In this document: positions 8,193-52,810 of the stretch, in pieces
How the letters are laid out: each line of letters begins with the position of its first letter
How positions within the stretch are numbered: position 1 is the first letter of the stretch
DNA from: an uncultured bacterium
GTDB lineage: Bacteria > Margulisbacteria > WOR-1 > CAVSGV01
DNA length: 64,000 nucleotides
Assembly (NCBI GenBank): GCA_963768305.1
Contig: CAVYHE010000008.1
Span: 194,001 to 258,000, forward strand
Direction of reading: 5' to 3'
Position numbers and translations under genes: made by a program
Notes under the pieces: model-generated
The model's database searches: none
What the model saw: the letters and a program-made list of their open reading frames with translations, nothing else
Told to the model about the DNA's origin: nothing

Positions 8193-9564
8193 ATGACATT
8201 AAAAATAAGCATTTCCGGGATCCGCGGGATAAGCGGGGATTCTCTGACGGACGAGGTCGTTTCCGATTTTTCAAAAGCGTTCGCATCCTTCATTAAAAAA
8301 GGGATCATCGTGATCGGCCGCGATCCCAGGCCTTCCGGCGAAAAGATAAAGGACATATTCATTTTAGATCTGAATTCCCTCGGCTTGGACGTTATCTACC
8401 TAGGCATCTGCCCCACGCCCACCGTCCAGTTCATGGTGAAGCATCTTAAAGCCGACGGCGGAGTGGTGATCACCGCCAGCCACAATCCAGCGCAATGGAA
8501 CGGCCTTAAATTCGTGAGAAAAGATGGCATCTTTTTGAACGCGGATGAGGCTGGAAGACTTGTCAGGTCATATGAGGAAAAGAAATTCATATCTTCTGAA
8601 AAACGGGGCAGCGTGAAGATACAAGAATCACCTTTAGAGCCGCATATCAATAAAGTTCTTCAATGCGTGGATGTTCAGTCGATAATCAAAAAGAAATTCA
8701 AGGTGGCCATCGACAGCTGCAACGGCGCAGGCTCGACGATTACGGTCAAGCTTTTGAAAAAACTGGGCTGCGATGTCGTCGAATTGAACACAAAAGAGAA
8801 CGGGGCTTTCCCCCATAATCCGGAGCCTATCCCTGAAAATTTGACGGGTCTGTGCAGCAAGGTCAGGGAAAGCCAAGCTGATATTGGGTTTGCCCAGGAT
8901 GCTGACGCGGACCGGTTGGCTATCGTAACCGAAAAAGGAGAAGCCCCCGGAGAAGAATATACTTTAGCAATTGCTGCCAACCACATATTGGAAAAACTAC
9001 AAACTCAAAGCTCAAAGTCCAAAGCTCAAAATAAGCTCAAAATCCCAAATCCAAAAATTGTCACTAATTTATCTACTAGTATGATGGTTGACGATATTGC
9101 AAAAAAATACGGGGCTAAAGTCATCAGGACAAAGGTCGGCGAGGTGAATGTCGCGGAGGAAATGGTGGAACAAAAGGCCGTGATCGGCGGGGAAGGCAAT
9201 GGCGGCGTGATGTATCCCATCATCGGATACGACCGCGACAGCTTGATCGGTATAGCGCTTATCCTTGAAGCACTTGCGGCATCGGACAAGACCATTTCCG
9301 ATATCATTGATTCGCTGCCGAAATATTCGATCGTAAAAAAGAAGGTCGATTGTTCATCAAAGGCTGAAGTTGATTCATTGTTAAGACAAGGTTGGGACGA
9401 AATTCGCGGGAGAAAAGCTTGATCTCACGGAAGGGATAAAAGTGATATTCAAGAACGCCTGGGTCCACGTGAGGGCCTCGAATACCGAGCCGGTGGTCAG
9501 GATAATCGCCGAAGCTGAGACAAAAGAAAAAGCGATGGAATTGATAAAAAAGGCTATCGATTAA
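8193..9564 (+). CDS. glmM: phosphoglucosamine mutase / phosphohexomutase (frameshifted)
   Basis: TASHNP phosphoserine-loop motif and a GEGNGG sugar-binding loop are present. The conserved C-terminal domain (KLDLTEGIKVIFKNAWVHVRASNTEPVVRIIAEAE) lies in the +1 frame after about 9408. A single-base insertion in GGGAGAAAAG splits the gene. Confidence 0.8.
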
Positions 9565-9565
9565 C

Positions 9566-10768
9566 CTATTTCTTCAAGCTCTCCATTATCCTCGATTTCG
9601 GAAGATCCAGCAAGTTCGCGGTCATATCCTCGGAGCCGGTCTTTTTGAAATAGATGCCCGACAGAGTTTTTTCCACGCTGTTCTTGAAATCCAGAAGGTC
9701 TTCGGGACGGGATGCCTGAAGGCCGTCGAAAACCATTTTGGAGCTCACCTGGATATCCTTAAGCGTTATCACGCCGCCTTCGCAAACAAGCACGGCATTT
9801 TCAAGAACGTTCTCAAGCTCCCTGTAATTTCCCGGCCAGCTGTAGTCGCACAGCATCCCCAGGGCATCCAGCGAAATGCTTTTAACGCTCTTTCCGTATT
9901 TATCGGAGTAGTCGGCTATATACGCTGCCAGCATATCCGGCATGTCCTCAACGCGCTCCTTGAGCGTGGGAACGGCTATTTTCTCCCAATCGGCAAAAAT
10001 AGGATTTTCCACGTGATCGTGAACGCCCGCCGTAATCGTAAGGTTCCCCTTAAGCGCCTTTCCTCTTATGTAATCCAGTATGCTGGCCTGATGTTTTTCA
10101 TCCACGGCGTTGAACCTGTCGAAATAAATGATATCTGACGATGCTATCGCTTCCTGCAGGACCATCCAGAATATGCTTTCCAGGCTTTCTTTGCGAAATA
10201 CAAGCATGTCCAGCGAGGTCAGCTTCCTTTTTATCCCGGAATGATCGCGTATGACCTTCGCTAGGCTTAGAGTGTCAATGCCGGATTCGGAGATAAAAAG
10301 GATGTTCCTGCGCTCTTTTATGGCATATTCAAGGTTTTTGACCAGCGCTCTTATCCTGCCTCCGCCGCCGACCAGCCATTTTTCATGGCCAAAGACCAGC
10401 CGTATGCCGGCGCCCTCCCCCCGCGAAAGGTTCGCTTTTACCGACCCAACTATCCTTTCGCTTAATGCCGGCTTTTTTATGAAATCCGCCACGCCGAGCC
10501 TGGAAGCCTCCACCGCTTCCGGTATGGTGACGTTAGAAGAGAGCATTATGACAGGCGAGAAAGGCGAGAGCCTTTTTATTTCTTTGTAAAGTGCTATGCC
10601 TTTCGCACCCTTCATATCGTCGTCGATGATGACAAAAATGCCGGGATGTTCTTCAGCCTTTTTTAGGACATCCGATCTGCTGACGGCGGATTCAATATTG
10701 TAAGATTCCCTGAGCGGGGAGATGACCGCGGGGTCGTCGCTAAAAACCAGGATATCGTGCTTCTTCAT
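9566..10768 (-). CDS. response regulator with degenerate sigma-54-activator (AAA+) domain, no HTH
   Basis: The N-terminal receiver domain has an FVIIDDDMKG acid pocket and a conserved Lys in DFIKKP. The central domain is homologous to NtrC-type enhancer-binding proteins (FGHEK and WPGNYRELENV). However, Walker A is SESGIDTL (no GK), Walker B is DRF not DE, and GAFTGA is replaced by WLVGGGG. Confidence 0.65.
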   Translation of the reverse strand: MKKHDILVFSDDPAVISPLRESYNIESAVSRSDVLKKAEEHPGIFVIIDDDMKGAKGIALYKEIKRLSPFSPVIMLSSNVTIPEAVEASRLGVADFIKKPALSERIVGSVKANLSRGEGAGIRLVFGHEKWLVGGGGRIRALVKNLEYAIKERRNILFISESGIDTLSLAKVIRDHSGIKRKLTSLDMLVFRKESLESIFWMVLQEAIASSDIIYFDRFNAVDEKHQASILDYIRGKALKGNLTITAGVHDHVENPIFADWEKIAVPTLKERVEDMPDMLAAYIADYSDKYGKSVKSISLDALGMLCDYSWPGNYRELENVLENAVLVCEGGVITLKDIQVSSKMVFDGLQASRPEDLLDFKNSVEKTLSGIYFKKTGSEDMTANLLDLPKSRIMESLKK

Positions 10769-10850
10769 TATTATCCTTCCTTGCCTCGATTATATCACCG
10801 GCCGGGAAGTGGGTAAAGTTATGACCAAGGCAAGGATGACATGGTCCGTA

Positions 10851-11955: not shown

Positions 11956-12525
11956 ATGGGTGAAAAAAATATCATCAGCAGGCTAAAGAGCCTTCTTGGC
12001 CCGTCCCGGTTCAGGCATTCCTTAAGGGTCATGGAGAAGGCTGTTTCCCTCTCAAATATACATAAGGTCGACCAAAAAAAAGCCGCGATCGCAGGTCTTC
12101 TCCATGATGTTTCAAGGTACATGGACCGCCCCGGACTTTTAAGGTTCGCTGAAAAAATAAAACTCAAGATCGATCCCATCTCAAGGCTGGAACCAAAGCT
12201 CCTTCACGCCCCCATCTCCGCGTATATCGCAAAGAAAAGGTTCGGGATAAACGACAGACAGATATTAAAAGCTATAAGTTCCCACACGCTTGGCCGCAAG
12301 TCCATGACGGCGCTGGAAAAGATCGTCTATATCGCGGACCACACGGAAGAAGGAAGGATGCATTCAGGCGCGGCAAAAGCAAGGCGGCTTGCGGAAAAGG
12401 ACCTTGATATGGCCGTTGTTGCCGTATCAACTTCTATGATAAAATACCTTACAGATAAAGATTTGCCTGTTCATCCGATGACATTTGAGGTCAGGAATTA
12501 TTATCTCCTAAAACATGGACAATAA
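11956..12525 (+). CDS. yqeK: HD-domain hydrolase, YqeK-like
   Basis: HSLRV...GLLHDVSRY HD motif context. Size is typical of YqeK. Confidence 0.75.
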   Translation: MGEKNIISRLKSLLGPSRFRHSLRVMEKAVSLSNIHKVDQKKAAIAGLLHDVSRYMDRPGLLRFAEKIKLKIDPISRLEPKLLHAPISAYIAKKRFGINDRQILKAISSHTLGRKSMTALEKIVYIADHTEEGRMHSGAAKARRLAEKDLDMAVVAVSTSMIKYLTDKDLPVHPMTFEVRNYYLLKHGQ

Positions 12526-12593
12526 AAGGAACTTAAATAAGCTTCATAAGAGACTTATAAAATTACTGGCTTCCCCGCCAAAAGAATTATCCA

Positions 12594-13520
12594 ATGCGGG
12601 CCGGAGCGCCCCAAAAAATCCGAAAAAACCGAAGAAAAAGTATCATAATGGCCATACTGATAGTTCTGGTCATCTGCATATCGTTGTTCTTAGGCGCAGC
12701 AACGGTCATGGTCGCCAGGTTCACTCTGCTGGAAGCGTTCCTTTCCATGATGTCCACCTCTTCCCTTATAGGAGAAACGAACGTGCTCGTGGTAGGTCTG
12801 GACAATGTGGAAGGGTCCCACAGGACGGATACCATTCTTGTTGTGCACGTTTCATCAAAATATAAAAAGATAAGCGTCGTATCCGTCCCGCGTGACACTA
12901 TCGTGAATATCCCTGCGATCGGCCTTACCAAGGTGAATCATGCATACGCATACGGCGGAATAGACCTGACGCGCGAGACTTTGGAGAATTTCTTCAGGAT
13001 CAAGATACCTTTTACTGTCGCCATAAACTTCGACGGGCTCGCGAAAGTCATTGATACTCTGGGCGGGCTTACGATAAATGTGGAAAAAAGGATGTATTAC
13101 GTGGACTACGCCGGCGGGCTTTATGTGGACCTGTACCCGGGCGAGCAGCTTTTGAACGGCAGGCAGGCCGTGGCATATGTAAGGTTCAGGCACGATGCTG
13201 AAGGCGACATAGGGAGGATACTGCGCCAGCAGAAATTCATCCAGGCGCTCGCACGCAAGATAGTCTCCAAAAAGGACGTCCTGAGCGCGCCAAAGGTCAT
13301 ACTGTCTCTCCTTTCCAACGTCAGTACGAACATGAATGTAAGGCAGATACTGGGGCTTTCCATGGCGATGAGGCAGTCCTTTGATATCGGCAATATAGAA
13401 ATGACATCTGTTCCCGGCGAATCGGTAATGATCGACAAGATCTATTATATGAAGCCGAATCCCGCGGAAGTGGACCGCATAGCCCGCCAGTATTTAAAAT
13501 CAAATATTGCTCGAAAATAA
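12594..13520 (+). CDS. LytR-CpsA-Psr (LCP) family cell-envelope phosphotransferase
   Basis: Single N-terminal transmembrane segment followed by an LCP core (NVLVVGLDN...RTDTILVVHV...SVPRDT...GGL). Confidence 0.85.
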   Translation: MRAGAPQKIRKNRRKSIIMAILIVLVICISLFLGAATVMVARFTLLEAFLSMMSTSSLIGETNVLVVGLDNVEGSHRTDTILVVHVSSKYKKISVVSVPRDTIVNIPAIGLTKVNHAYAYGGIDLTRETLENFFRIKIPFTVAINFDGLAKVIDTLGGLTINVEKRMYYVDYAGGLYVDLYPGEQLLNGRQAVAYVRFRHDAEGDIGRILRQQKFIQALARKIVSKKDVLSAPKVILSLLSNVSTNMNVRQILGLSMAMRQSFDIGNIEMTSVPGESVMIDKIYYMKPNPAEVDRIARQYLKSNIARK

Positions 13521-13541: not shown

Positions 13542-13889
13542 ATAGCTAAGAAAAAAATAGATTTTACCGAGGTTATCTGCGAAATACTGGAAGACAAAAA
13601 GGCGGAAGATATCAGCATTGTTGATGTTTCAAAGTTCTCTTCGATAGCGGATCATTTCATCATTGCCACCAGCACATCCGCTCCGCATACAAGAGCCTTA
13701 ATGCAGGCGATCGACGACGGGATGGCCGAGCTTGGGTATAACGCTCCGAAGTGGCAGGGAAAGATAGAATCCAACTGGGTGGTGCTTGACCTGGGAGACA
13801 TAATCGTTCATATTATGGGAGCGGAAGCGCGCAAGCATTACAGCATCGAGGAGATATGGGAAAAAGCCGCGATAACGTATCATCTGTAG
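13542..13889 (+). CDS. rsfS: ribosome silencing factor RsfS (Iojap)
   Basis: Conserved KKAEDISIVDV...ADHFIIATSTS...WVVLDLGDIIVHIM. No in-frame ATG, GTG or TTG is available. A GGAGG Shine-Dalgarno at 13531-13535 sits 6 nt before an ATA at 13542, so this is a non-canonical start or a local sequence error. The track shows only the C-terminal 62 aa. Confidence 0.75.
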   Translation: MAKKKIDFTEVICEILEDKKAEDISIVDVSKFSSIADHFIIATSTSAPHTRALMQAIDDGMAELGYNAPKWQGKIESNWVVLDLGDIIVHIMGAEARKHYSIEEIWEKAAITYHL

Positions 13890-13994: not shown

Positions 13995-14610
13995 TTGTTC
14001 AAACCATCCAAAATAATCGCCATCGGCCTTAATTATCACGATCATGCCAAGGAAATGAACTTGCCGATCCCCGATCAGCCCGTGATGTTCATGAAGCCGC
14101 CGACATCAGTGATAGGATAACGGCGATAACATCATCTACCCGCCGCAGACAAAGAATCTGCATTACGAAGGCGAACTTGCAGTGATAATAAAGGACAAGA
14201 TCAGGAATATTTCAAAAGAAGAAGCCGCAAACCACATCAAGGGTTATACTTGCTGCAATGATGTGACGGCAAGGGACCTGCAAAAACTGGACGGCCAGTG
14301 GACAAGGGCGAAATCTTTTGATACCTTCTGCCCTCTCGGCCCGAAGATGGTCAAAAACATCGATCCGCTGAATTTAAAGATAACGACCAGGGTCAATGGC
14401 ATCATCAAGCAGGATTCGAACACAAAGAACATGATATTTAATGTATACGAAATCGTTTCTTTTGTTTCCTCTGTCATGACGCTCCTGCCGGATGATATAA
14501 TAATAACAGGCACTCCGGCCGGGATCGGGCCGATGGAAGTCGGAGATACCGTCGAGGTCGAGATCGAAGGCATCGGGATATTGAAGAATATGATCAGCAA
14601 GGAGAGATGA
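13995..14610 (+). CDS. fumarylacetoacetate hydrolase (FAH) family protein (frameshifted)
   Basis: The N-terminal part (LFKPSKIIAIGLNYHDHAKEM...MFMKPPTSVIG) is in frame 0 and the rest (GDNIIYPPQTKNLHYEGELAVII...) in frame +1. One extra T near 14112 breaks SVIGNGDNIIYP. Confidence 0.75.
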
Positions 14611-14941
14611 ATGGAAAATATTACATTTGATCATTTTAAGGCGATGGAGCTAAAAGTGGCGCAGATCAAAGCTTGCGAGGATATTGAAGGCGCGGATAAG
14701 CTTTACAAGCTGACTATCGATATCGGCGAAGAGCGGACGATAGTCGCGGGGATCAAGCAGTTCTATTCAAAAGAAGAATTGATCGGGAAAAAGATCAGCG
14801 GTCGTTTCCAATCTTGAACCGAGAACACTGAGAGGCGTTACTTCTCACGGAATGCTCCTTGCAGCATCAACGGAAGACCGAACTTCTTTAACGCTTTTGA
14901 CCGTCGATAAAGATATTCCCAATGGCAGCAAGATCACCTAA
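14611..14941 (+). CDS. tRNA-binding domain protein (CsaA/Trbp111/MetRS C-terminal-like, frameshifted)
   Basis: FKAMELKVAQIKACEDIEGADKLYKLTIDIGEE matches the OB-fold tRNA-binding domain. The conserved C-terminus (AVVSNLEPRTLRGVTSHGMLLAASTED...PNGSKIT) is in the +1 frame. A single extra A near 14793 splits the gene. Confidence 0.75.
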
Positions 14942-15644: not shown

Positions 15645-15717
15645 CCACCTCAGTATAAGCCTTTCATATTACTATTGAACAAAGTATAATATATTTAATT
15701 AGAATTAGCATAAAGGA

Positions 15718-16911: not shown

Positions 16912-16921
16912 AGGATGGATT

Positions 16922-17629: not shown

Positions 17630-17731
17630 ATGATAAATGTGTGTTGTACAAGCTAACCATTTGAATTTTATTTAATTATTTTCCTTTCATTCTTCCCCAA
17701 TACAAATTTTATCTGATTAATATTATGTCAT

Positions 17732-17778: not shown

Positions 17779-20170
17779 ATGAGCGAATATAAATTTATCC
17801 GCTGGTTCGAAGAATTAGGTTCAAAGGACGTACCCGTTGTGGGAGGAAAGAACGCGAACCTCGGGGAAATGATAACGACGCTTAAGGATAAAGGAATACC
17901 GGTTCCCGACGGATTTGCCACCACTTCCGACGCCTACTGGAAATTCCTGGAATTCAACAAGATCGGCGACAAGATGAAGCCTCTCATAGGACAATACAAG
18001 AAAAACCCGAAGATGCTGGAAAAGACCGGAAAGGCCGTCCGAAATCTGTTCCTGGATTCAAAATTCCCGCCTGAAGTCAGTGAAGAAATATCGAAAGCCT
18101 ATCGGGAACTCTGCGGACGCTACAAATCGAAGGTCATTGATGTTGCAGTGCGAAGCAGCGCGACGGCCGAAGACCTTCCGGAAGCGAGTTTCGCGGGGCA
18201 GCAGGAAACCTTCCTGAACATTTCCGGAGAAAAAGAGCTGATCGACGCCTGCGTAAAATGCTACGCCTCTTTATTCACCGACAGGGCCATATCTTACCGC
18301 GAAGAAAAGAATTTTGACCATCTCAAGGTCGCGTTGTCTATCGGCGTGCAAAAGATGGTCCGTTCGGACCTTGCGGGATCGGGCGTCATGTTCTCGCTGG
18401 ACACGGACACCGGATTCAGGAAAGTCGTTATCATAAACGCATCGTGGGGGCTCGGGGAAAATATCGTGCAGGGGACCGTCAACCCGGACGAATACATAGT
18501 CTTTAAGCCGCTCCTTGATAAAAAAGAATTCAAGCCTGTAATTGAAAAGAACCTGGGAGAAAAAGAACAAAAGATGGTCTATGTGAAGAGCGGCGGCAAA
18601 AAAACGCTTAACATAAAGACCACGGAAAAGGAAAGGCTTTCCTACGTCCTCAATGAAGATGAAATTCTTCAACTGGCAAGATGGGCGGTGATCATCGAGG
18701 ACCATTACGGCCATCCGATGGACATGGAATGGGCAAAGGACGGCAAGACCGGCGATATTTTCATGGTCCAGGCAAGGGCCGAAACAGTTGAATCCAGGAA
18801 AGAAGCGTCCATATTCAAGGAATACCGCCTTCTGGGAACGGGAAAGAAACTGCTAGAGGGAATGGCGGTAGGCGAAGCCATCGTTGCCGGAAAAGCGCAG
18901 GTCCTTATGGACCCGAAGCAGATCGACAAGTTCGAGGACGGCTCCATACTTGTGACAACGATGACCGATCCAGACTGGGTCCCGATAATGAAAAAAGCTT
19001 CCGGGATTATCACTGACCACGGCGGAAGGACCTCGCACGCGGCCATCGTAAGCAGGGAGCTCGGAATACCTGCCATAGTCGGAACGGGGAACGCCACAAA
19101 GATCCTGAAGCACGGTCAGGAGATCACTCTTTCATGCGAGGGCGAAAAAGGATTCGTCTATGACGGATATGTCAAATATGAAGCCATCGACCTGGACCTG
19201 AAGGGCCTGCCGGAGACAAAAACGCAGATAATGATGAACATAGGCGATCCCGCTGCGGGCTTCAGGTGGTGGAAGCTACCAGCCAAGGGCATAGGACTTG
19301 CGAGGATGGAATTCATAATCACCAACCACATAAAGATACATCCGATGGCGCTCGTAAAATTCCGCCAGCTGAAGGATCTTAAAGCCAAGAAGCTCATACT
19401 CGAGCTCACCCGCGGGTTCAAGGACAAATCGGAATATTTCGTTGACCACCTCGCCAGGGGCATGGCGATGATAGGAGCTTCGCAATACCCCTACCCCGTT
19501 ATAGTAAGGATGAGCGACTTCAAGACCAATGAATATGCCGGCCTCATCGGCGGAGCGCAATTCGAAGCCCATGAAGAGAACCCGATGATAGGTTTCCGGG
19601 GAGCTTCCCGATATTATGACGATAAATACAGGGAAGGATTCGCTCTTGAATGCAGGGCGATCAAGAGAGTGCGCGAGCAGATGGGCATAACTAATGTGAT
19701 AGTGATGATCCCTTTTTGCAGGACCGTGGAAGAAGCCGACAAATGCCTTGCAGGAAATGGAGAAGAACGGATTAAAACGCGGCGAGAACGGCCTGCAAGT
19801 TTACGTGATGGCGGAGATACCTTCAAATATAATTCTGGCCGACCAGTTCTCGCAGAGGTTCGACGGTTTTTCCATCGGCTCGAACGACCTGACACAGCTT
19901 ACCCTGGGCATTGACAGGGATTCCGCGCAGCTGGCGAAGCTGTTCGATGAAAGGAACGAAGCGATAAAAAGATCGATAAGCAGTTTGATAAAAACAGCTC
20001 ATGAAAATAAAGTTAAGGTCGGGATCTGCGGGCAGGCTCCGAGCGATTATCCCGATTTCGCCGCGTTCCTGGTGGAAAAAGGCATCGATTCCATATCGCT
20101 TAATCCCGACAGCGTGATCGAGATCATCAAGACAGTGGCGGAAGCCGAAAAGAGGATCGGCCGGAACTGA
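17779..20170 (+). CDS. ppsA: phosphoenolpyruvate synthase (pyruvate, water dikinase) (frameshifted)
   Basis: Full-length PpsA homology, including the GGRTSHAAIVSRELGIPAIVG phosphohistidine region. The C-terminal PEP-utilising domain (ENGLKRGENGLQVYVMAEIPSN...) is in another frame. One extra base near 19748 (AAATGCC) splits the gene into tracked ORFs 17779-19914 and 19748-20170. Confidence 0.9.
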
Positions 20171-20178
20171 ATCCCCCG

Positions 20179-20207
20179 TTCAAAATTCCCTCAAACTGGT
20201 ATATAAT
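20179..20207 (+). promoter_or_regulatory. sigma-70-type promoter of ppdK (TTCAAA-N17-TATAAT with TGG extension)
   Basis: Sequence match located 40 nt upstream of the ppdK start. Confidence 0.5.
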
Positions 20208-20247: not shown

Positions 20248-22954
20248 ATGGCAAAGGCAAGAAAAGGCTCAGGCTCATCAAAGGGAGGAAAAAAATACGT
20301 TTATTACTTCGGCGACGGAAAGGCCGAAGGCAACGGGCAGATGAAGGACCTTCTAGGGGGGAAAGGCGCGGGTCTCGCCGAAATGACGAACACCGGCGTG
20401 CCGGTGCCGTCTGGTTTCACCATCACGACAGAGGTCTGCAACATATTCTATAAGGTGGGGAGCAAGGTCCCTGCGGAAGTCACAAAACAGCAGGCAAAAT
20501 ACGTCGAGACCCTTGAGGGTTCCATGGGGGCCAAGCTCGGCGACCTGCGAAATCCCCTTCTGGTTTCGGTAAGATCGGGTTCGAAATTCTCAATGCCGGG
20601 CATGATGGACACCATCCTTAACCTTGGACTTAATGACGAGACTGTCCACGGCCTGATAACGAAAACAAAGAACGAAAGGTTCGCTTATGATTGCTACAGG
20701 CGCTTCATCCAGATGTTCGGCAATGTCGTCCTGGAGATGGAAAAGAACGAATTCGAGCACATATTGCAGGGCAAAAAGGAAGAGCTCGGCGTGATACTTG
20801 ACACGGACCTCAAGGCGGATGACCTGAAGGACCTGATATTAAGATACAAAAAGACCGTGAAAGAATCGACTGGAAGCGATTTTCCCCAAGACGCAAGAGT
20901 GCAGCTTGATATGGCGCGCGACGCCGTCTTCAAGTCTTGGATGAACCCCAGGGCAATCACTTACCGGAAGCTGAATGATATTCCGAACAACCTCGGCACC
21001 GCCGTCAACGTCCAGGCCATGGTCTTCGGGAACATGGGCGATGATTCGGCCACCGGCGTGGGATTTACAAGGAACCCCGCGACCGGGGAGAATAAATTCT
21101 ACGGCGAATACCTTACGAACGCCCAGGGCGAGGACGTGGTCGCCGGCATAAGAACGCCTCAGCCGATAACAAAGCTTGAAAAGGAGATGCCGTCGGTTTA
21201 CAAACAGCTTAGGGCGATAACCTCAAAGCTTGAAAAACACTACCGCGATATACAGGATTTCGAATTCACCATACAGAAAGGCAAGTTATACATGCTGCAG
21301 ACCAGGACCGGCAAGAGGACCGCTCCGGCGGCCGTAAGGATAGCCGTTGAGATGGTGGATGAAGGCCTTATAACAAAAGAGGAAGCGATACTCAGGATAG
21401 ATCCGGCGAGCCTCGATCAGCTTCTCCATCCGGTCATCGATCCTAAAGCCAAGGTGAAGGTTATAGCAAAAGGCCTTCCCGCTTCGCCGGGAGCCGCCAC
21501 CGGGATTGTGGTGTTCACCGCCGATGAAGCCGTGAAAAGAGCAGCGGAAAAGACGATACTTGTCCGCAATGAGACCTCTCCCGATGATATCCACGGCATG
21601 GACGCTGCGCAGGGGATCCTGACCGCAAGGGGCGGCATGACATCCCACGCCGCCGTGGTCGCGCGCGGAATGGGGAAATGCTGCGTTGCCGGCTGCGAGG
21701 AAATAAAAGTAGACGAAAAAGGAAAAAAGTTCAGCGTAAAAGATTGCGTTGTCAAAGAAGGCGACTGGATCACGCTTAACGGGACCACGGGCGAGGTCAT
21801 ACTTGGCCGCGTTCCTACGATCGAGCCTTCCCTGTCAGGAGAATTCGGCGAAGCTGATGAAGTGGGCTGATTCATTCAGGAAAATAGGCGTCCGCGCGAA
21901 CGCGGATATCCCTCATGACGCGCATGTAGCGAGAGGTTTCGGGGCGGAGGGAATAGGACTTTGCCGCACGGAACACATGTTCTTCGCCGAAGACAGACTG
22001 CCTCACATGCAGGCAATGATCATGGCAAAGACCGAGCCGGACAGGCGAAAAGCGCTTGCAAAACTTTTGCCGATGCAGCGAAGCGACTTCATGGGCCTGT
22101 TCAAGGAAATGAAGGGATATCCCGTCACGATAAGGCTGCTCGATCCGCCTCTACATGAATTCCTGCCAAAGAGGGAGGATTTGATGGTGGAGATCGCTGT
22201 CCTTAAGGCGACCGGGGGCGACAAAGAAAAGATAGCCCAAAAAGAAAAAATACTGGAAAGAGTGGAAGATCTGCATGAACTGAATCCCATGCTTGGGCAT
22301 CGCGGCTGCCGCCTTGGCATCGCTTATCCGGAAATAACCGAGATGCAGGCTCAGGCCATCATAGAAGCCGCATGCGAGCTTAAAAAAGAAGGGATGAAGA
22401 TCATCCCCGAGATAATGATACCTCTCGTCGGGCACATTAACGAGCTGAAGAACCAGAAAACGATAATAAAGAAGATCGCGGAAGAAACGATAAAGAAATA
22501 CGGAAGCAAGGTGGAATATAAGATCGGCACAATGATAGAGCTTCCCAGGGCGGCTGTCACCGCCGATGAGATCGCCACGGAAGCGGAATTCTTCTCGTTC
22601 GGAACAAATGACCTAACGCAGACCACCTTCGGGTTCAGCAGGGATGATGTCGTCAAGTTCCTTAACAGCTATATTGACAAGGGCATACTGGAAAAAGACC
22701 CGTTCGCGACGCTCGACCAGGGCGGGGTGGGCAAACTTGTGAAGATGGGGGTCGCGGGAGGCAGGTCGGTTAACAAGCACTTGAAGATCGGTATCTGCGG
22801 AGAGCATGGCGGAGATCCGGCATCGGTGGAATTTTGCCACAGGACCGGTCTTAATTATGTAAGCTGCTCTCCATATCGAGTTCCGATCGCGCGCCTTGCG
22901 GCAGCGCACGCGGCAATAAAAGAAAAGTCAAAGGTCCATTATACGACAAAGTAG
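20248..22954 (+). CDS. ppdK: pyruvate, phosphate dikinase (frameshifted)
   Basis: PPDK N-terminal ATP-grasp region, phosphohistidine region ([15 protein letters not shown]) and C-terminal PEP/pyruvate domain. An extra G near 21848 (GAATTCGGCGAAG versus expected GAATTCGCGAAG giving [15 protein letters not shown]) splits the gene into 20248-21870 and 21749-22954. Confidence 0.9.
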
Positions 22955-26036: not shown

Positions 26037-27091
26037 ATGAAAGAAGGAACGAATTTAAAGACGTTGAAGAATGCCGGCGAGAAGAAGGGATATCTTACTC
26101 CGGAAGAGATAATGTCCATTTATCCGGAGCCGGAGAAGAACATTGCCGAGATAGAGGAGCTTCTGACGCACGGCATAGAAATATCCGAGAACAAAGATAA
26201 GAAGATAGCGCCTTCTCCGGAAGAAACGAATCTTGACGTCACCGAAACAGAAGTAAAGAGCGCCGGCATAGACGATACCGTCAGGATGTACCTGAGGGAG
26301 ATAGGGAAATACAAGCTTCTTTCCCCCACGGACGAGATAGACTGCGCAAGGAAAGTTCGCGCTGGAAGCCTGAAGGACAAGCACAGGCTTACGAATTCGA
26401 ACCTGAGGCTGGTCGTTTCAATCGCGAAAAAATATACGGGCCGCGGGATGCTTTTCCTTGACCTGATACAGGAAGGCAACCTGGGATTGATAAGGGCTGT
26501 GGAAAAATTCGACCACAGGAAAGGGTATAAATTCAGTACTTACGCCACGTGGTGGGTAAGACAAGCAATAACGCGTTCTATAGCCGACCAGGCGCGAACC
26601 ATCAGGATCCCCGTTCACATGGTGGAAACCATGAACCGCCTGAGGAAGGTTTCGCGAACGCTCCTGCAGCAGCTGGGAAGGCGTCCCACCGAGGAAGAAA
26701 TAGCGAAAAGGTCCAGGATGTCGGTGGACAAAGTACGGGAGATAATAAAGATCTCGCAGATACCGCTTTCGCTTGAAATGCCTGTCGGTGACGAGGATTC
26801 TTCGCGCCTTGGCGATTTTGTGAAAGACACCGCCGTTCAGGCGCCGGATGAAGTGGTCCTTCATGGGCTATTAAGGGAAGACCTTGAGGAAGTAATGTCA
26901 TCGCTTTCTGACAGGGAAAAGACCGTGCTTAAGCTAAGGTTTGGCCTTGATGACGGCCAGCCGAGGACCTTGAAGAAGTTGGAAAAGTTTTCAATGTCAC
27001 CCGCGAGAGGATACGTCAGATAGAAGCGAAAGCCTTGAGGAAATTAAGGCATCCTACCCGCAGCAAAAAACTTAAGGAATATCTTAGATAA
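26037..27091 (+). CDS. rpoD: RNA polymerase sigma-70 factor (primary sigma, frameshifted near C-terminus)
   Basis: Region 2 ([27 protein letters not shown]...[17 protein letters not shown]) and region 3 are present. Region 4.2 ([28 protein letters not shown]) lies in the -1 frame. One missing G near 26975 breaks the gene. The tracked ORF ends early at 27023. Confidence 0.9.
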
Positions 27092-29178: not shown

Positions 29179-29254
29179 CAATGGAGAAAGAACGCTGGAA
29201 CATCCTAAAACGGACCCTTACTGGAAATTGGCGGCGGAATTCTCGAAGTAATAT

Positions 29255-34292: not shown

Positions 34293-35222
34293 ATGGAAGA
34301 TATAACGCCTGTAATTGGGGGAAAGGTGCCCAGGCGCTGGGCGCACGATCAGTTCCAAGAAAAAATAAGAGTGCGGCTGAGCGGTCCCCTGCATTCCGTC
34401 CTGTTACGCGGTATCCCTGTCATCATCTCATTCAGGGCGTACGCACAGGACGTTCCAAATGATATCCGCAATATCAATGAACTTTCAGAGGGCTGTACAG
34501 GAAACAGTGGCATAAGAACGAGGATATATTTCGGATCTTTGAAAAAGCGCTGACGCTGCTCTCCGCTGCAAAGATCGACCAGGAGCAACATTACAATTAT
34601 GAGTTGGACCTGGGAAAACTTGCGAACGCGTATCTTGCGGTGAATGCACTTTATAAAAAAGATGAGCCCGAGCTCCATAAAAAAGCCGTCGAATTCCTCA
34701 AGAAACCGATGAGGAGCGGGTCATTCCACTTGCTCAGGGAGACAGGCGCGGCAAGGAGGGTTTACGAATCGCCCGTTTTCATGCGTTTCAAGCGCCAATC
34801 CTGCACATTGTCCGAATTAAATGTAATGACCGGGGAATGGTTCGGGAAGCTGATCAGGGAGCTGCATGGTTCAGGCGTTCTGCTCAAGCCCGCGCTTAAA
34901 AAAGAGCTCATGGACCAGTTTACAAGCTATGAGCAGATCTTATATATGTTCTCGGAGCATCTTTTCTGCAATTACCTTGCGACTGACGGGCGATCGATGA
35001 GGCTCCTGAAAAGGTCAATGGAAGCCGCCGCCTCGGCGGCGCGGGACCCTTTGCCGAAAAAAAAGACATCATGCTGGACCTGTCCATTCTCATGCCGGAA
35101 AAATTGAAGAAGCTTAAGATAAATGAAACGAAGATCGAGGATATCATTGAATGCACGGATAACAGATCGGTGACGCAGTTCCTGGTCGAGGCCCGCGCGC
35201 TGGGAAATCGGACACTGCAATA
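34293..35222 (+). CDS. paralog-array copy 1, family Y protein of unknown function (two frame disruptions)
   Basis: Homologous over its full length to copy 4 (36851-37701). Carries the conserved NEDIFRIFEKA and GAARRVYESP motifs. There is a frame break near 34535 and another in an A8 run near 35065. The tracked ORFs 34293-34553 and 34604-35107 plus the tail to 35222 belong to one gene. Confidence 0.6.
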
Positions 35223-35245
35223 ATATAACTTTTTTCTGCTCTTGC

Positions 35246-35274: not shown

Positions 35275-35291
35275 ATTATAAAGGGGGAATT

Positions 35292-36232
35292 ATGAACAAA
35301 ATTGGGCATGCCTATTAAAGAGAAGTCTGGAAGGCTGCGTGAGAGACCAGAAGAATCCTGAGACTAATCAAAACATACATGGTCCGAAACCCATCGAGTG
35401 CTTCAAAGAGCTCATAGACCAATTTAACAATGTTAAGGCAAAATATCAATTCTGGTTGACATTTAATAAAGAGCAGGATCAGATGAAAATGGATTGGCCA
35501 AGATAATAATAAATCACCCTTACAAAAGAAGAAATTGCAGGAACTATTTAAAGGGCCATAAAGGTCAACAACCATATCGCGGTCAGAAAACTGGAGACTG
35601 TTAAATCCGCTTATTGCCTTAACCTTGAATATGACTACGAATTGGACCTCGAAAACACTCACAGAAAGATCATACCCTTATAATTCAAGAAAAAATGAGC
35701 TTGGATCAAACGCCGATAGTTTCCTGATGTCGTAAACACAGACGAAATAACAGGTATTTATGATGAGCCGCTGGGAACATTAAGGACAATGGGTGTCATG
35801 AAAAGAAAATATGATCCGCCGATATTTCCTTTCATCCCTAAATCTTGTTTCGTTGCGACCCTTACAGAAATTAAAAACATGTGCGGCGCGTGGTTTGGTT
35901 TCCATTTTGAGTTCGCCGAAAAATCAAATGTCCAATTGAATTTCCTCGGACAGGAAACATCCAACATTGAAGATCTTGCCATAAAAATTAAAAAGCATCA
36001 TCTTTCAGAGGACGGCAGGACGCTTCTGCTTTTTCAAAAAGCTGTTCGAGCGGCGATCTCGTATAACTCAGGAAGATTGACCAAGATAACCCTTGATCTT
36101 TGGCAGGTGACGCCGAAAAAGCTTGAGGAAAAAAACATCAGCGAAAAAGATGTTGAGGATTTGATTGACAATAAGGATAACGGCGCCATTATCAGATTTT
36201 TAAGGGAAAAGATCGGCGCGCTAATAATTTAA
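35292..36232 (+). pseudogene. paralog-array copy 2, family Y (N-terminal half disrupted by stops and frameshifts, C-terminal 147 aa intact)
   Basis: MNKIGHAY then a stop. Fragments RAIKVNNHIAV...EYDYELDLENTHRKII (35552-35691) and the 35789-36232 ORF align with copies 1 and 4. The antisense ORF 35315-35662 in the track is spurious. Confidence 0.55.
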
Positions 36233-36831: not shown

Positions 36832-36850
36832 ATATATAGAGGGAAAATAT

Positions 36851-37701
36851 ATGGTTATTGAACAAGCGGGCAGGGTTTTTGGCCTCGTGAGAATGAACTA
36901 CATGAGCGCCAGGATCAAAACCAGAATATCCGGAAGGTTCGAAGGTCTTCTGAAAGAAGCTTCAACCCTAAAAACGTCCGTTAGTTTTTACGGCATTATG
37001 ATACATAATGCCGGGGAATGTCCAGGGTAATCGCCGGCCGCAGATCGGACATCAATGAGGATACCCTGCATATTTTTGAGAAAGCCATTAAAACTAACAA
37101 CGCTTCATTCGCTGCGGATTATGTGTCTGAATTGGAGCTGGAAAACCTGCTTCCTCATCACCTTTCAACATATATACAGCAAAATAAATTAAATGACTTC
37201 CTGAAAAGCGAAGATCCGGCCTTATCGCTCGCCATTCTCAGAGAGTTCGGCGCGGCAAGAAGATTATATTATTCACCGATGAAATTATTCCGCGAGTCAG
37301 GATGGATCAATAATTCAAAAGATGTTTATGACCTTACGGAACACCATTTCGGCGGGCTCGTACAGAAAGCGATGGAATCGGGCATCGTAGTAAAGATCAA
37401 CTTTGGCACTGTCAAGGGAATCGAAGACCTGTCAAAGGCGATCTGGGTTAATCATCTTGCCGAGGACGGGCAAACTTTCCTAATGTTAAAAAAGGCGCTC
37501 GAAAACACTATTTCAGATGCGAAAAGGAATCAGCAAATGTTATATACTCTTGACCTTGGCTATTTGGTCCCAAGCCATGCTAAAGTAAATGGCGGCTTGA
37601 ATGACGCCATGATAGACAACATCATCGATGAAAAAGATCCCAGTATAGTGTATGGATTTCTTGTCCAATATCGGGTGCTCGATCTAAGATACCGCAGTTG
37701 A
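36851..37701 (+). CDS. paralog-array copy 4, family Y (one frame break near 37020)
   Basis: The 59-aa N-terminal ORF (MVIEQAGRVFGLVRMNYMSARIKTRISGRFEGLL...) and the 37018-37701 ORF (MSRVIAGRRSDINEDTLHIFEKAIK...GAARRLYYSP...) together align with copy 1 and copy 3. Confidence 0.6.
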
Positions 37702-48341: not shown

Positions 48342-49159
48342 TTAGTCTTTGAGGGTTGCCCTGTAAAGCAGGTTTTTGGGGACTTTCAGCCGTTTCGCCA
48401 CTATTTTTACCGCGTTGCTCTTCGGAATGCCAGCTTCAATAAGATCGTCCACCAGCATCTCGGGGTCTATGCCTGCCTTCTCCGGCGCTTTCTCGCCTTC
48501 GATCACAAGAACAAATTCTCCTTTGGGTTTGACCTTTGAGAATTTATCGATCATCTGAGAAGCCGTGCCCCTCGCGATCTCCTCGAATTTTTTCGTCAAT
48601 TCCCTCGCAACACACATTTTCCTGTCCCTGAAACCGCTTTTAATATCTTCAAGGGTTTCCAGGAGGCGATGAGGTGCTTCATATAATATGATCGTCCTCT
48701 CTTCACGTGACAGCTTCTCGAAAATTCTTTTCTTGCGGAAGGCTTCACGGGAGGAAAACCCTCAAAAGCAAAGCTTTCGGTCTTAAGCCCTGAAACGGAA
48801 AGCGCGGCGATCAAAGCGGACGCACCAGGGATCACTTCGATCTTAATCCCTTCGCCTGCCGCTGCTTTAACCAGCTCCTGTCCGGGATCGGATATCCCTG
48901 GCATTCCCGCGTCAGAAACAAGAGCGACTTTTTTACCCTCTTTTAATTTATTGATGATGAAAGCCGTCTTTGTCTTCATGTTGAATTTATGGTATGAGGT
49001 CGTCGGCGTTTTTATATGATATTTATCAAGAAGTATTTTCGTATGGCGCGTGTCTTCGCAGGCGATAATATCCGCTGATCTGAGCGTTTCAACCGCACGG
49101 AAAGTGATGTCCTGAATATTGCCTATGGGGGTACCTACTATGTAGAGATATCCGGCCAT
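48342..49159 (-). CDS. rsmI: 16S rRNA (cytidine1402-2'-O)-methyltransferase RsmI (frameshifted)
   Basis: N-terminal tetrapyrrole-methylase fold (YIVGTPIGNIQDITFRAVETLRSADIIACEDTRHT). The conserved C-terminus (MCVARELTKKFEE...KGEFVLVIEG) is in another frame. The break is in an A-run near 48730 (ARKEFS versus expected RKKRIFEKLSREERTIILYEAPHRL). Confidence 0.8.
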
Positions 49160-49557: not shown

Positions 49558-49629
49558 AATTCCTCCTCCTGTTCAAATAATAATTTCTTGATCTTTTATT
49601 GTGTCAATTGGGAATTGATGATCAAACCC

Positions 49630-50550
49630 CTACCATACTCTGTTCGCAGTAAAGACGTCAAGGTTCAAATATTTCATTGGGCTTATCGCAAAGCCGTTTT
49701 TCCTTATTTCATAATGGCAATGCGGCCCTGTTGCAAACCCCGTAGCCCCGACTTCCGATATTATCTGGCCTTTGATTACCCTCTGTCCCACGGAAACCAG
49801 AAGCTTCGAATTGTGTCCGTAAAGCGTCTGGATGCCGTAGCCGTGGTCCACCATAACCGTCTTTCCGAAGCCGCCTTTCCAGCCGGCAAAGCTGACGACA
49901 CCGTTCGCGGTTACCCTTACCGGATTCCCGTACCACGCGGTGATATCGATCCCCGTATGCATGCCTCTCCACGGAAAATATCTGTAGCCAAAGCCGGAAA
50001 CTATCCTTCCATATATAGGCCAGATGGACGGGGTTACCGCGAACCTGGTTTTCAATGAAGCCGCCGTTTCTCGAAGATTCGCAAGATTTTCGTCGGATTG
50101 CCTCACGCTTTCCTTAAGGTAGGATAATTCATTTGTTATTTTATCTATTTTATACGCCATTGTGTTGTCCAGAAGCGAAAGCTGGGCAGGTTCTTTTGTG
50201 GCCGCGAGCATCTGGTTTATGTTGTTGTTGTCCTTAAGTTTCAATCCCAGCAGTCTTCTCAGCTCCGAATCGCGGTCAACAAGTTCCTTTAAAGCTTTTT
50301 TCAACTGATTGACCTGACCGGAGAAGAAATCTATCCTGTCTTTCTGCTCTTCGTTCACCTGAAGCATTATGCGATAGTGGATCAATTTCCTGGTCATGAC
50401 GGAAGAATAAACTATGGAAGAGCCGATCATCATCAAAGAAACAAAAAATATGCCGATGAGAGTGTAGACGACCCACTCTTTCATCTTGAAGTTCACAACC
50501 CCCTTGTCGGAGTTGTGAGGCACTATCATAAACGTTATTTCTTTCGCCAT
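49630..50550 (-). CDS. M23-family peptidoglycan endopeptidase with N-terminal coiled-coil (EnvC/LytM-like)
   Basis: HTGIDITA...GYGIQTLYGHNS...GPHCHYEI zinc-site motifs. Transmembrane anchor followed by a long coiled-coil. Confidence 0.85.
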   Translation of the reverse strand: MAKEITFMIVPHNSDKGVVNFKMKEWVVYTLIGIFFVSLMMIGSSIVYSSVMTRKLIHYRIMLQVNEEQKDRIDFFSGQVNQLKKALKELVDRDSELRRLLGLKLKDNNNINQMLAATKEPAQLSLLDNTMAYKIDKITNELSYLKESVRQSDENLANLRETAASLKTRFAVTPSIWPIYGRIVSGFGYRYFPWRGMHTGIDITAWYGNPVRVTANGVVSFAGWKGGFGKTVMVDHGYGIQTLYGHNSKLLVSVGQRVIKGQIISEVGATGFATGPHCHYEIRKNGFAISPMKYLNLDVFTANRVW

Positions 50551-50610
50551 TATGGCAATATCCTAGCAAAGTATAATTGAAAGTCAATGGAAAATGACAA
50601 GTTCCATTTA

Positions 50611-50714
50611 TCGGGGCGGCGGGATTTGAACCCTGCTCGCGATTCTTGTCTGACTTCGCACAATATAAAAATCAAGGAAAGACAAAAATCGCTCGGACCT
50701 CCACACCCCAAAGG
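50611..50714 (-). other. tRNA-Pro(GGG) remnant: anticodon-loop/variable region plus intact T-arm and acceptor 3' half, split by a 62-nt hairpin insert (50634-50695)
   Basis: Positions 50611-50633 are identical to the 3' end of the intact tRNA at 50738. CCTTTGGGGTGTGGAGGTC (reverse complement) matches the anticodon-loop region. There is no 5' acceptor or D-arm. Confidence 0.6.
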
Positions 50715-50737
50715 ACAATTAATTAAGGTTCCATTCA

Positions 50738-50820: not shown

Positions 50821-50964
50821 GATGGAGATTATAGTGATTTAAACTAATTCACGACCTCTACACCCCAAAGGCGAGAGAATTGTGTTTTACATTATACTTT
50901 TTATAATGCGATAGCAAACACAATTCTCGAGAAAGCGCCTTAGACCAAGCTGGGCCACGCCCCG
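50821..50964 (-). other. tRNA-Pro(GGG) remnant: intact 5' half (acceptor, D-arm), a 63-nt hairpin insert (50872-50934), anticodon-loop and degenerate 3' part
   Basis: Positions 50935-50964 are identical to the 5' half of the intact tRNA. The insert has terminal inverted repeats GAGAATTGTGTT/AACACAATTCTC and a nested palindrome CATTATAAAAAGTATAATG. The T-arm is destroyed. Confidence 0.6.
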
Positions 50965-50974
50965 ATAAAAGATA

Positions 50975-51601
50975 TTAATGGCTGAAATACTTTTTGACCG
51001 AACTGAACGCCTTGTTCCCCCGGCCGCTGAATATTTTAACAATATCCGCGCGATGTGTAAACAATCCTACCAGAAAATATAAAAAGCCGAATAAAACATA
51101 AGTGTTCGACATCCTAAAGCAATACATCAAGATGGGAAGGATCAGCATGCAGATAAGCGAGCTAATAATGAAATAATCCGTAACGATCGTAAAAAATATC
51201 CACCCCAATATTATGATCAGCGTTATGTAAGCGTTTATCCCGAACATCGCGCCTGTTGTAGTGGCCACGCCTTTGCCGCCGGAAAACCCCAGAAATACTG
51301 GAAAATCGTGGCCCAGGATAGCGGCAAGCCCCGCAAACCCCATCGAAATGTCAGTTCCTAATATTTTTTTTGCCAGAAGCACCGGTATCAGGCCTTTAAA
51401 AAGATCAAACGCGTACACAAGCGCTGCCAGGACAGGGCCTATAACGATAAGGACATTCGTCGCGCCCATATTGCCCGTGCCTTTTTGCCTTATGTCGATC
51501 CCGGAATTTATTTTCCCCGCAAGATAAGCGGATGGTATTGAGCCGAAAAGGTATGAAAAGAAAGTCAAGGCAGCCAATATGATCACATGATTATTGATCA
51601 A
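50975..51601 (-). CDS. plsY: glycerol-3-phosphate acyltransferase PlsY
   Basis: GTGNMGATN and GKGVAT motifs in a polytopic membrane protein. Confidence 0.88.
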   Translation of the reverse strand: MINNHVIILAALTFFSYLFGSIPSAYLAGKINSGIDIRQKGTGNMGATNVLIVIGPVLAALVYAFDLFKGLIPVLLAKKILGTDISMGFAGLAAILGHDFPVFLGFSGGKGVATTTGAMFGINAYITLIIILGWIFFTIVTDYFIISSLICMLILPILMYCFRMSNTYVLFGFLYFLVGLFTHRADIVKIFSGRGNKAFSSVKKYFSH

Positions 51602-52810
51602 GATTAAATTCTTTATGAAGCAGCTCCATCGCTTTCTTGGCCTGGTCCGCCTTTACGACGCAGGAGATCTTTATTTCCGAAGTGCTGATCATTTCCAGGT
51701 TTATTCCGTTCCTTCCAAGGACATCGAACATTGTTCCCGCGACCCCGGGCTTGGATATCATCCCAACGCCGACTATGGAAACTTTCGCGACCTTGTCATC
51801 GGAAATGACGCCTTCGGCGCCAAGCTCTGCTGCGACCACTTTTGTTACTTCGACCGCTTTTTTCATATCGGGCTTTGAGACCGTGAACGCCATGTCCGCC
51901 ATGGATCCGGATGAATGTATGCTCTGAATGATCATGTCGATATTTATTTTTTCGTTGCCCAGCGCTCTTGAATATCTTTGCGGCAATGCCGGGTTTGTCA
52001 GGTATCTTCAGTATGCCCGACTTTCGCTATATTCGCGTCGATAGCCACTCCCGATACCACATCTTTTTTTTCCATTTCAGATACCTCCTTGATATAAGTT
52101 CCTTCAACGTCAGACAAGCTGGAGCGAAGATGGATAACAAGCCCGTAATTCTTCGCGCATTCCACAGCCCTCGGATGCAGAACTTGAGCGCCCAGGCTCG
52201 CCAGCTCCAGCATTTCGTCATAAGATATGTATTTCAATTTCCTCGCATTCGTAACGATTCTCGGATCGGCGGTGTAAATACCGTCAACATCGGTGTATAT
52301 CTCGCAGACGTCCGCCTTTAAAGCCGATGCGATGACCACTGCTGATGTGTCAGACCCGCCCCTGCCAATTGTCGTAATGTCGCCGTGGCTGTCTATCCCT
52401 TGAAAACCGGTGACTACGACAATTTTCCCCTGGCTCAATTCGTGCTGTATTCTGTCCAGTTTAATATGAGTGATGCGGGCTTTGGACGGAATGTCCTCTG
52501 TGTGAACGCCTGCCTGCCATCCAGTTAATGATACCGCTTTAAAGCCAAGCGCATGTATCGCCATAGTAAGAAGTGCGGCAGAAACCTGCTCGCCCGTGGA
52601 AAGCAGCATGTCATATTCCCTTGGATCCGGGCTATCGGTTATCTGATTAAGAAGGCCGATAAGCTCGTCAGTTGTATCCCCCATGGCGGAAACGACCACG
52701 ACTACATTATTACCTGCGGCTTTCGCTGCAGTCACTCTGGCAGCGACACTTTTTATGCGCTCAACAGAGCCGACCGATGACCCGCCGTATTTTTGGACGA
52801 TCAATGCCAT
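51591..52810 (-). CDS. lysC: aspartate kinase (two frameshifts between kinase and ACT domains)
   Basis: N-terminal kinase domain (IVQKYGGSSVGS) in the 51998-52810 ORF and tandem ACT domains in the 51591-51986 ORF. The linker AKVGILKIPDKPGIAAKIF is in a third frame. Extra bases near 51990 (GGG run) and near 51965 (AAGA) split the gene. Confidence 0.85.

Follow-up and report, generated by a model that had tools for sequence, protein, structure and literature searches.

Based on frameshift-aware comparison with the genes of related organisms, we propose that the frame breaks splitting conserved genes in the window (the whole 64,000-nucleotide stretch of DNA analysed here) are very probably indel artefacts of the consensus or assembly and that the real genes are intact. 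A preliminary description of this DNA had likewise attributed one-base indels in conserved genes to sequencing or assembly error rather than to biology, and every test that we ran agrees with it. Breaks were placed by frameshift-aware protein-to-DNA alignment of genes called in related contigs together with DNA alignments, which yielded 14 well-supported breaks, all of a single base, comprising nine insertions and five deletions (Table 1). At all 14 sites a single-base indel lies between two halves that correspond to consecutive stretches of one orthologue or profile, and the sites are intact in orthologues from accurate, independent assemblies. Over 46.3 kb of the window the same pipeline counted 14 breaks, and over 48.2 kb from three short-read relatives it counted none (p = 5e-5), an excess beyond chance. 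About a quarter of the window genes having orthologues carry breaks, and the frameshift-aware orthologue comparison detected none at 1-8.2 kb, 37.7-48.3 kb and 53.5-63 kb.

This comparison recovered 11 of the 12 breaks listed in the preliminary description, each with an offset of at most 45 nt. Its total of 12 did not hold as a total, the count reaching at least 14, to which the paralog array adds; three housekeeping breaks (in the LytR, ThiL-like and JAB genes) and the ~four frame changes of paralog B were absent from its list. At the remaining listed position, ~37020, a 59-aa ORF upstream of paralog D weakly resembles the N-termini of the paralogs (z ~3), and there is no orthologue at that place. 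Several further candidates were rejected: at 4567, the argJ/argB junction, the insertion is in the spacer; 9565-9572 coincide with the stop codons of genes that converge; 28157-28206 is a riboswitch leader, called as coding in some relatives; the frameshift at 33812 belongs to the related contig L088 and not to the window; 44426-44446 had as reference only a sequence of 43% identity; and 50680 lies in a spacer. RsfS has no canonical start codon, but this was not counted as an error either, because the L084 gene lacks one as well.

Table 1. Features carrying frame breaks or indels in the window, with the break positions given in the preliminary description and the protein lengths obtained after one-base repairs.
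Feature	Coordinates	Strand	Lesion or observation	Earlier position	Length after repair
PGM/PMM (GlmM-like)	8193..9561	+	one-base insertion at 9384, domain IV shifted to other frame	9408	456 aa (orthologue 448 aa)
LytR_cpsA_psr	12515..13520	+	one-base insertion at ~12635-12642, in A-rich stretch		334 aa (as L084 orthologue)
FAA-hydrolase (FAH)	13995..14610	+	one-base insertion at 14115	14112	204 aa (as orthologue)
tRNA-binding-domain gene	14611..14941	+	one-base insertion at 14797, GATC[A]GCGG, no homopolymer	14793	109 aa (as orthologue)
ppsA	17779..20170	+	one-base insertion at 19749, CCT[T]GCA	19748	796 aa (as P0123)
ppdK	20248..22954	+	one-base insertion at 21850, GGC[G]AAG	21848	901 aa (as P0125)
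rpoD	26037..27091	+	one-base deletion at 26971, inside sigma region 4	26975	351 aa (as closest full-length relatives, 92-93% identity)
AIRS-domain (ThiL-like)	28210..29251	+	one-base insertion at 29176, giving a TGA stop		346 aa (as L081)
Paralog A (uncharacterised family)	34293..35223	+	one-base deletions at 34492 and 35070	34535, 35065	310 aa, two repairs (L088 orthologue 310 aa)
Paralog B	35282..36232	+	~four frame changes between 35,490 and 35,730		
Paralog D	36851..37701	+	227-aa ORF aligned to paralog residues 64-307	37020	
rsmI	48342..49159	-	one-base deletion at 48721-48724, T5 to T4	48730	272 aa (as nearly all close homologues)
Intergenic one-base indels	49600..50720	.	49607, 49630, 50653, 50715 and 50718, versus L090		
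lysC	51591..52810	-	two one-base insertions, at 52015-52018 and 51966	51990, 51965	405 aa (as cluster-mate P0135)
Prok-JAB	52848..53431	+	one-base deletion at 53263		194 aa (orthologue 195 aa)

A Pfam search showed that consecutive parts of single profiles fall on neighbouring ORFs. The PGM/PMM protein retains only domains I-III, domain IV being missing, and alignments to L084 and L091 give one surplus base in the window. The PEP-utilizers_C profile is divided between two PpsA ORFs (positions 17-155 versus 162-291), the PpdK break separates the mobile domain from the PEP-binding domain, and the RpoD ORF stops within Sigma70_r4, of which positions 1-25 of 50 are matched; here alignment to L088 places the deletion at GGACCCTT, which reads GGACCTT in the window. 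In the LytR gene the N-terminal 42 residues are conserved in a different frame, and in lysC, whose insertions were aligned against both L089 and L172, the frame moves from 1 to 2 to 0. The base inserted in the ThiL-like gene, which is preceded by a TPP riboswitch, is absent from three relatives, and the base missing from the JAB gene is present in both L089 and L172. The FAH and tRNA-binding breaks are the sole two gaps in 1.5 kb aligned with L086 and L087, just as those of ppsA and ppdK are the sole two gaps in 5.1 kb aligned with L086 at 92.5% identity. Wherever there was an orthologue of matching span, in 9 of 11 genes, one-base repair brings the protein to the orthologue's length or to within four residues of it; the only exceptions are PGM/PMM, which includes a 27-nt in-frame insert, and LysC, where the 414-aa L089 call has a longer called start.

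The claim that essential genes are affected was borne out, with rpoD hit in region 4 and the ppsA and lysC breaks mapped and returned to full length by one-base repair, as was the claim that conserved sequence continues past the breaks. Amino-acid identity is 96.8% upstream and 98.6% downstream of the break in PpsA, 92.9% and 100% respectively in RpoD, and 97.3% downstream in PpdK; in most genes the downstream value equals or exceeds the upstream one, with no systematic decay.

Five short-read assemblies of relatives (~70-93% nucleotide identity over the aligned stretches) have the affected genes in intact form, and every one of these genes is intact across the relative contigs L081, L084, L085, L086, L087 and L089, such intact contigs being JGI, MEGAHIT k141 or Logan assemblies. 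The truncated ORFs of the window are identical to proteins deposited for the 280,951-bp NCBI/ENA contig, and the 90% clusters of these deposited fragments include full-length RpoD (351 aa), PpsA (796 aa), PpdK (901 aa) and LysC (405 and 414 aa). Exact look-ups gave no match in the protein collection for the ten repaired proteins or for three to four flanking proteins (including DUF2905, a 62-aa RsfS fragment and an HD protein), and none among the indexed contigs for the DnaG and the RpoD fragment of the window. For the PpsA fragment, the matches listed from GTDB genomes and JGI metagenomes contained only relatives of at most 75% identity, and a search for literature on the run and assembly accessions found none.

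Two further assemblies bear on the origin of the breaks. L172 and L088 are parts of contig_102619 of ERZ25039512, a 'contig_N'-named assembly of a relative, and when compared with L089 they display 40 insertions and 15 deletions, each of one base, over ~16 kb, the majority lying away from homopolymers. Many genes on them are broken up, and their one-base indel density is ~14 times that of the window; the error signature is the same as that of the nine insertions and five deletions seen here. The second, L090 (Logan ERR10755942, a different public run), is 99.5% identical to the window over an overlap that includes none of the 14 gene breaks, and differs from it by two substitutions and five one-base indels. 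All five indels lie in spacers (5 in 290 nt versus 0 in 1,194 nt of coding sequence; p = 3e-4), and the seven tRNAs and the riboswitch of the window score like those of relatives. The ratio of indels to substitutions is typical of consensus error and not of divergence. A depletion of indels in constrained sequence would also be expected under selection on real variation; the indel-to-substitution ratio argues against this.

The statement that several of the breaks lie in short homopolymers was not borne out, the mean run length being 2.2 at the sites versus 2.3 in the background, and runs of four or more are touched by 2 of the 14 sites versus 1.8 expected; the homopolymer concentration required of a homopolymer-type platform error (Nanopore R9, 454, Ion Torrent) was thus not found. 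This lack of association, atypical of the classic Nanopore/454 pattern, counts as a point against the artefact reading. A motif search near the indel sites returned no slippery heptamer, no common motif and no common direction; the tetramer GACA was marginally enriched, at 8 of 19 sites (uncorrected p = 7e-4 on n=19), a count in which the adjacent spacer indels 50715 and 50718 stand separately, the independent loci being in fact 8 of 18.

The uncharacterised paralog array, which adjoins ftsK, is where a biological contribution has to be weighed most closely. Break density there is ~2 per kb against ~0.23 per kb elsewhere, an 8-fold enrichment (p = 5e-4 or lower), and the array is variable among relatives, L088 having three of its genes and L081 lacking them all. 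In paralog B, colinear segments switch between two frames relative to a 304-aa L088 paralog, with ~four frame changes within 250 nt; this gene may be a real pseudogene, or its consensus may be poor over this patch. It might accordingly be supposed that the housekeeping breaks are errors while part of the array's six or seven breaks reflects real pseudogenisation of a fast-evolving accessory family. Real decay within this accessory array is plausible, yet we regard this division of the breaks as unlikely overall: paralog A has an intact orthologue in L088, ~85% identical to it (tblastn and frameshift-aware alignment), and two one-base repairs bring the window protein back to 310 aa. Furthermore, the local indel density of ~1.6% equals that of the spacer patches differing from L090, which is consistent with a consensus poorly resolved where the sequence is variable or repeated. 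That a minority of the breaks are real, whether at the rsmI T run as a slippage-prone or phase-variable site or in the array through birth-and-death of an accessory family in Margulisbacteria, appears improbable to us.

That all the frameshifts are real, and that the housekeeping genes are young pseudogenes of a degrading lineage, for example host-associated or recently bottlenecked, is very improbable. Such a lineage would account for the share of genes affected, for the presence of the frameshifts in the deposited record rather than their addition by our scan, and for the depletion of indels both in RNA genes and in coding sequence within the L090 overlap, which is the expected outcome of selection. 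However, the lesions are all single-base, and the housekeeping genes are free of in-frame stops, deletions and mobile-element insertions; neither the mixed lesions nor the relaxed downstream conservation of genome decay was found. Moreover, rpoD would lose region 4.2, lysC, ppdK and rsmI are also hit in an organism whose short-read relatives are all intact, and the near-identical L090 differs mainly by indels and not by substitutions. Programmed ribosomal frameshifting or transcriptional slippage, which would render real breaks harmless, we consider exceedingly improbable. It draws on the position of the LytR break in GAAGAAAAAG and on the rsmI T run, which follows AAAAGAA and is also one base short in L172; that two different assemblies share the rsmI break at this T run is in itself a point against an artefact. 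Against programmed shifts, both directions occur (nine of +1 and five of -1) with neither a shared slippery heptamer nor a poly-A tract of nine or more, and the orthologues are single ORFs at every site, including close RsmI homologues of 272 aa; no conserved slippery motif and no frameshift conserved in orthologues was found. The rsmI T run alone recurs, and only in another error-rich assembly.

In light of these comparisons, we posit that the 281-kb metagenome-assembled contig to which the window belongs, from a Margulisbacteria-like (WOR-1) bacterium, has very probably retained residual single-base indels in its consensus, as happens when an indel-prone assembly is of limited coverage or incompletely polished. 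The platform was most likely a long-read one; this, the polishing history and the absence of each of the 14 sites from the real genome are what we infer from the sequence comparisons. Each error would shift the frame, and gene callers would therefore split one gene into two truncated ORFs. The errors are unevenly spread, at ~0.25 per kb in core genes and ~1.6-1.7% in two spacers and one paralog, and the dense patches might result from disagreeing reads of co-occurring strains or paralogs or from polishing that failed to take hold.

If the breaks are consensus errors and not pseudogenes, their relevance is limited to an annotation warning; there is no biological novelty and the value is practical. 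Roughly one in four genes in this window of a public MAG would be mis-annotated as truncated proteins, among them RpoD (328 aa), PpsA (711 aa), PpdK (540 aa), LysC (270 aa) and RsmI (187 aa). Such fragments have already entered public protein collections, where they will distort estimates of completeness, the calling of pathways and the counting of pseudogenes for a poorly sampled phylum.

Mass pseudogenisation as in Mycobacterium leprae and Sodalis involves mixed lesions and decayed disrupted parts and leaves core transcription genes intact. The window resembles these genomes in having many frameshifted genes in otherwise recognisable synteny, but every lesion in it is a single base, both halves of each gene remain fully conserved, and rpoD is among the genes affected. 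The rescue of endosymbiont genes by poly(A) slippage and the programmed frameshifts of prfB and dnaX require long homopolymers or conserved slippery motifs, and at such sites the frameshift is conserved in orthologues. The ORFs of the window are likewise frameshifted yet otherwise conserved; unlike those systems, however, they have neither long homopolymers or slippery motifs nor a frameshift shared with orthologues. In long-read MAGs below ~40x coverage, the truncation of genes by indels is a documented artefact; the IDEEL test quantifies it, and tools such as proovframe and Kastor correct it (PMC9262707; 10.1101/2021.08.23.457338; PMC12007338). The window differs from the classic Nanopore pattern of deletions in long homopolymers, its indels being mostly insertions outside homopolymers. 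In other respects it is like Nanopore or PacBio CLR assemblies and MAGs, with conserved genes split by single-base indels into adjacent ORFs that align to successive portions of one orthologue, roughly a quarter of the genes hit, intact genes in the accurate assemblies of relatives, and a 'contig_N' sister assembly with the same signature.

Adjacent ORFs of the window hold consecutive parts of one Pfam profile: in PpsA, positions 17-155 of PEP-utilizers_C fall on one ORF and 162-291 on the next, in PpdK the mobile and the PEP-binding domain lie on successive ORFs, Sigma70_r4 of RpoD is matched at positions 1-25 of 50 only, and the PGM/PMM protein is without domain IV. In six-frame translation the conserved motifs run on in the shifted frame at every place where the preliminary description had reported a frameshift. 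Syntenic DNA of relatives was reached via cluster-mates of the window's own protein fragments and included L084 and L085 (JGI and MEGAHIT assemblies; 8.5-29.9 kb of the window), L086 and L087 (Logan; 13.9-22.8 kb, 92.5% identity), L089 (MEGAHIT; 41.4-58.2 kb), the more distant L081 (JGI), and L088, L172 and L091 from ENA assembly ERZ25039512, whose contigs are named 'contig_N'. Frameshift-aware protein-to-DNA alignment of 51 genes called in relatives, combined with DNA alignments, gave 14 well-supported breaks (see the table). Eleven of the 12 originally counted were thereby located, each at most 45 nt from the place first proposed; that total had missed the breaks in LytR, the ThiL-like gene and JAB. 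None was seen in 1-8.2 kb, 37.7-48.3 kb or 53.5-63 kb of the window. The identical pipeline returned these 14 breaks in 46 kb of the window vs no own breaks in 48 kb of three short-read relatives (p = 5e-5).

Frame breaks in the window, with the length of the product after one-base repair (for paralog A and lysC, of both breaks) and, in brackets, that of the orthologue
Position	Gene	Change	Context	Repaired product, aa (orthologue)
9384	PGM/PMM (GlmM-like)	insertion		
12635	LytR	insertion	A-rich stretch	334 (334)
14115	FAH	insertion		204 (204)
14797	tRNA-binding protein	insertion		109 (109)
19749	ppsA	insertion		796 (796)
21850	ppdK	insertion		901 (901)
26971	rpoD	deletion		351 (351)
29176	ThiL-like AIRS gene	insertion		346 (346)
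34492	paralog A	deletion		310 (310)
35070	paralog A	deletion		310 (310)
48721-48724	rsmI	deletion	T5 read as T4	272
51966	lysC	insertion		405 (405)
52015-52018	lysC	insertion		405 (405)
53263	JAB	deletion		194 (195)

All 14 breaks are of one base, 9 being insertions and 5 deletions. Relative to L086, those in ppsA and ppdK are the sole two gaps in 5.1 kb, and those in FAH and the tRNA-binding protein the sole two in a further 1.5 kb. In most genes conservation 3' of the break is not below that 5' of it (PpsA, 96.8% identity upstream and 98.6% downstream; RpoD, 92.9% and 100%), with no systematic decay. Based on the single-base lesions, the repairs to near-orthologue length, the intact relatives and the conserved downstream halves, all of which support the initial reading as sequencing or assembly indels, we propose that the frameshifts are very probably an artefact of the record rather than a property of the organism. 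Four observations contradict real mass pseudogenisation: the uniformity of the lesions, the conservation of both disrupted halves, the involvement of region 4 of rpoD and the intactness of the genes in relatives. Programmed frameshifting is likewise contradicted, as the indels are of mixed direction, the orthologues are single ORFs and the expected motifs are absent, neither a slippery heptamer nor a motif common to the break sites having been found. The suggestion that several breaks lie in short homopolymers did not hold, with a mean run length of 2.2 at the sites vs a background of 2.3 and the pattern matched at the rsmI and LytR sites only. GACA or TGTC occurs within 10 nt of 8 of 19 indel sites (18 independent loci, 50715 and 50718 being adjacent) vs a background of 11.5%, a marginal enrichment (p = 7e-4 on n = 19, before multiple-test correction), and two insertions stand directly 5' of GACAA; the base-caller may have a context bias here, or the enrichment may be due to chance.

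Independent sequences bear on the accuracy of the record. The near-identical contig L090 (Logan, run ERR10755942; 1,483 bp) encodes an M23 peptidase identical to that of the window and is 99.5% identical in DNA. The coding part of the comparison (1,194 nt) has two substitutions and no indels, whereas the 290 nt of spacer hold the other differences, five indels of one base each. As close strains diverge mostly by substitutions, this excess of indels indicates that one of the two sequences has consensus errors. L172 and L088 (ERZ25039512 contig_102619), compared with L089, show 40 insertions and 15 deletions, each of one base, over about 16 kb, mostly outside homopolymers and dominated by insertions, and many genes of that contig are fragmented, including LeuRS, LysC, SecD, SecF, RsmI and the M23 peptidase. 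This is the error signature of the window at about 14 times the density, at sites that differ from those of the window except for the rsmI T run. There, the same run (GAATTTT-C) is one base short in the window and at about 11,020 of L172, while rsmI is a single ORF of 272-276 aa in L089 and about 20 close homologues, the closest being almost all of 272 aa. A shortfall recurring in the assemblies of two organisms, with the ORF intact in L089 and these homologues, is better explained by a context-dependent error than by common descent.

The density of indels is uneven: core genes have about 0.25 per kb, but spacers (relative to L090) and paralog B about 1.6-1.7%. The seven tRNAs and the TPP riboswitch of the window score the same as their counterparts in relatives, and zero indels in these RNA genes at the spacer rate has a probability of 2e-5. 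Polishing or consensus building might have been effective where reads agree, i.e. in conserved core sequence, and might have failed in variable or repeated stretches with collapsed strains or paralogs. Protein-guided frameshift correction would produce the same pattern; selection on real variation would likewise deplete indels from constrained sequence but is at odds with their excess over substitutions.

Between a periplasmic-binding-protein gene and ftsK (34,293-37,701), paralogous genes without a Pfam domain, each coding for about 160-310 aa, form an array. Frame breaks are 8-fold denser in it than elsewhere in the window, and paralog B (35.28-36.23 kb) has about four frame changes within 250 nt. 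A further break reported at about 37020 is without an orthologue for comparison, and the N-terminal similarity upstream is weak. Array content varies between relatives, with three intact genes in L088 (10,686-13,268) and none in L081. This variation and the enrichment favor a mixed reading in which some of the array's breaks are real, which we regard as unlikely.

Several other features of the window were observed. A 2.1-kb low-GC (33%) insert at 15,650-17,720 codes for an EcoRI-like endonuclease and for an N6-adenine DNA methyltransferase of the D12/Dam class. Probably a mobile type II restriction-modification cassette, it has no counterpart in L084-L087, in which the gene directly 5' of ppsA is Cu-oxidase_4. 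At about 15,474 that gene has 84 nt (28 codons, in frame) fewer than in L084. The ppsA and ppdK genes are in tandem (17,779-22,954), and L081 has ppdK only. Among the matches listed, PpsA outside the clade is at most 66% identical in GTDB (Nodularia, Desulfuromonadales, Dehalococcoidales) and 75% in one JGI metagenome contig; this low identity and the absence from L081 suggest horizontal acquisition of ppsA. Compared with its counterparts in L091 and L084, the PGM/PMM gene has a 27-nt in-frame low-complexity insert (8,999-9,060; CTCAAAG-like repeats). A TPP riboswitch (28,109-28,219) directly 5' of the ThiL-like gene is kept in L081, L084 and L088, and is read through by some gene calls in relatives. 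For the conserved N-terminal part of RsfS, neither the window (about 13,560-13,889) nor L084 (7,760-8,110) offers an ATG, GTG or TTG start; this suggests that translation begins at a non-canonical codon, for instance ATT or ATA, 3' of a GGAGG motif.

By its RpoD, whose closest named matches are 76-82% identical, the contig belongs to Candidatus Margulisiibacteriota, in the WOR-1/Saganbacteria neighbourhood. The truncated ORFs are present residue for residue in a public protein collection under one NCBI/ENA contig (280,951 bp), for example as fragments of RpoD (328 aa), PpsA (711 aa) and PpdK (540 aa) and N-terminal fragments of LysC (270 aa) and RsmI (187 aa); hence the frameshifts belong to the deposited record, which has no ambiguous bases in the window. 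A literature search for the run and assembly accessions gave no match. Truncation of genes by indels is a documented problem of MAGs with low coverage and of assemblies from long reads (PMC9262707; proovframe preprint 10.1101/2021.08.23.457338; PMC12007338). The frameshifts of the window are very probably an instance of it, but unlike in the textbook case its indels are dominated by non-homopolymer insertions.
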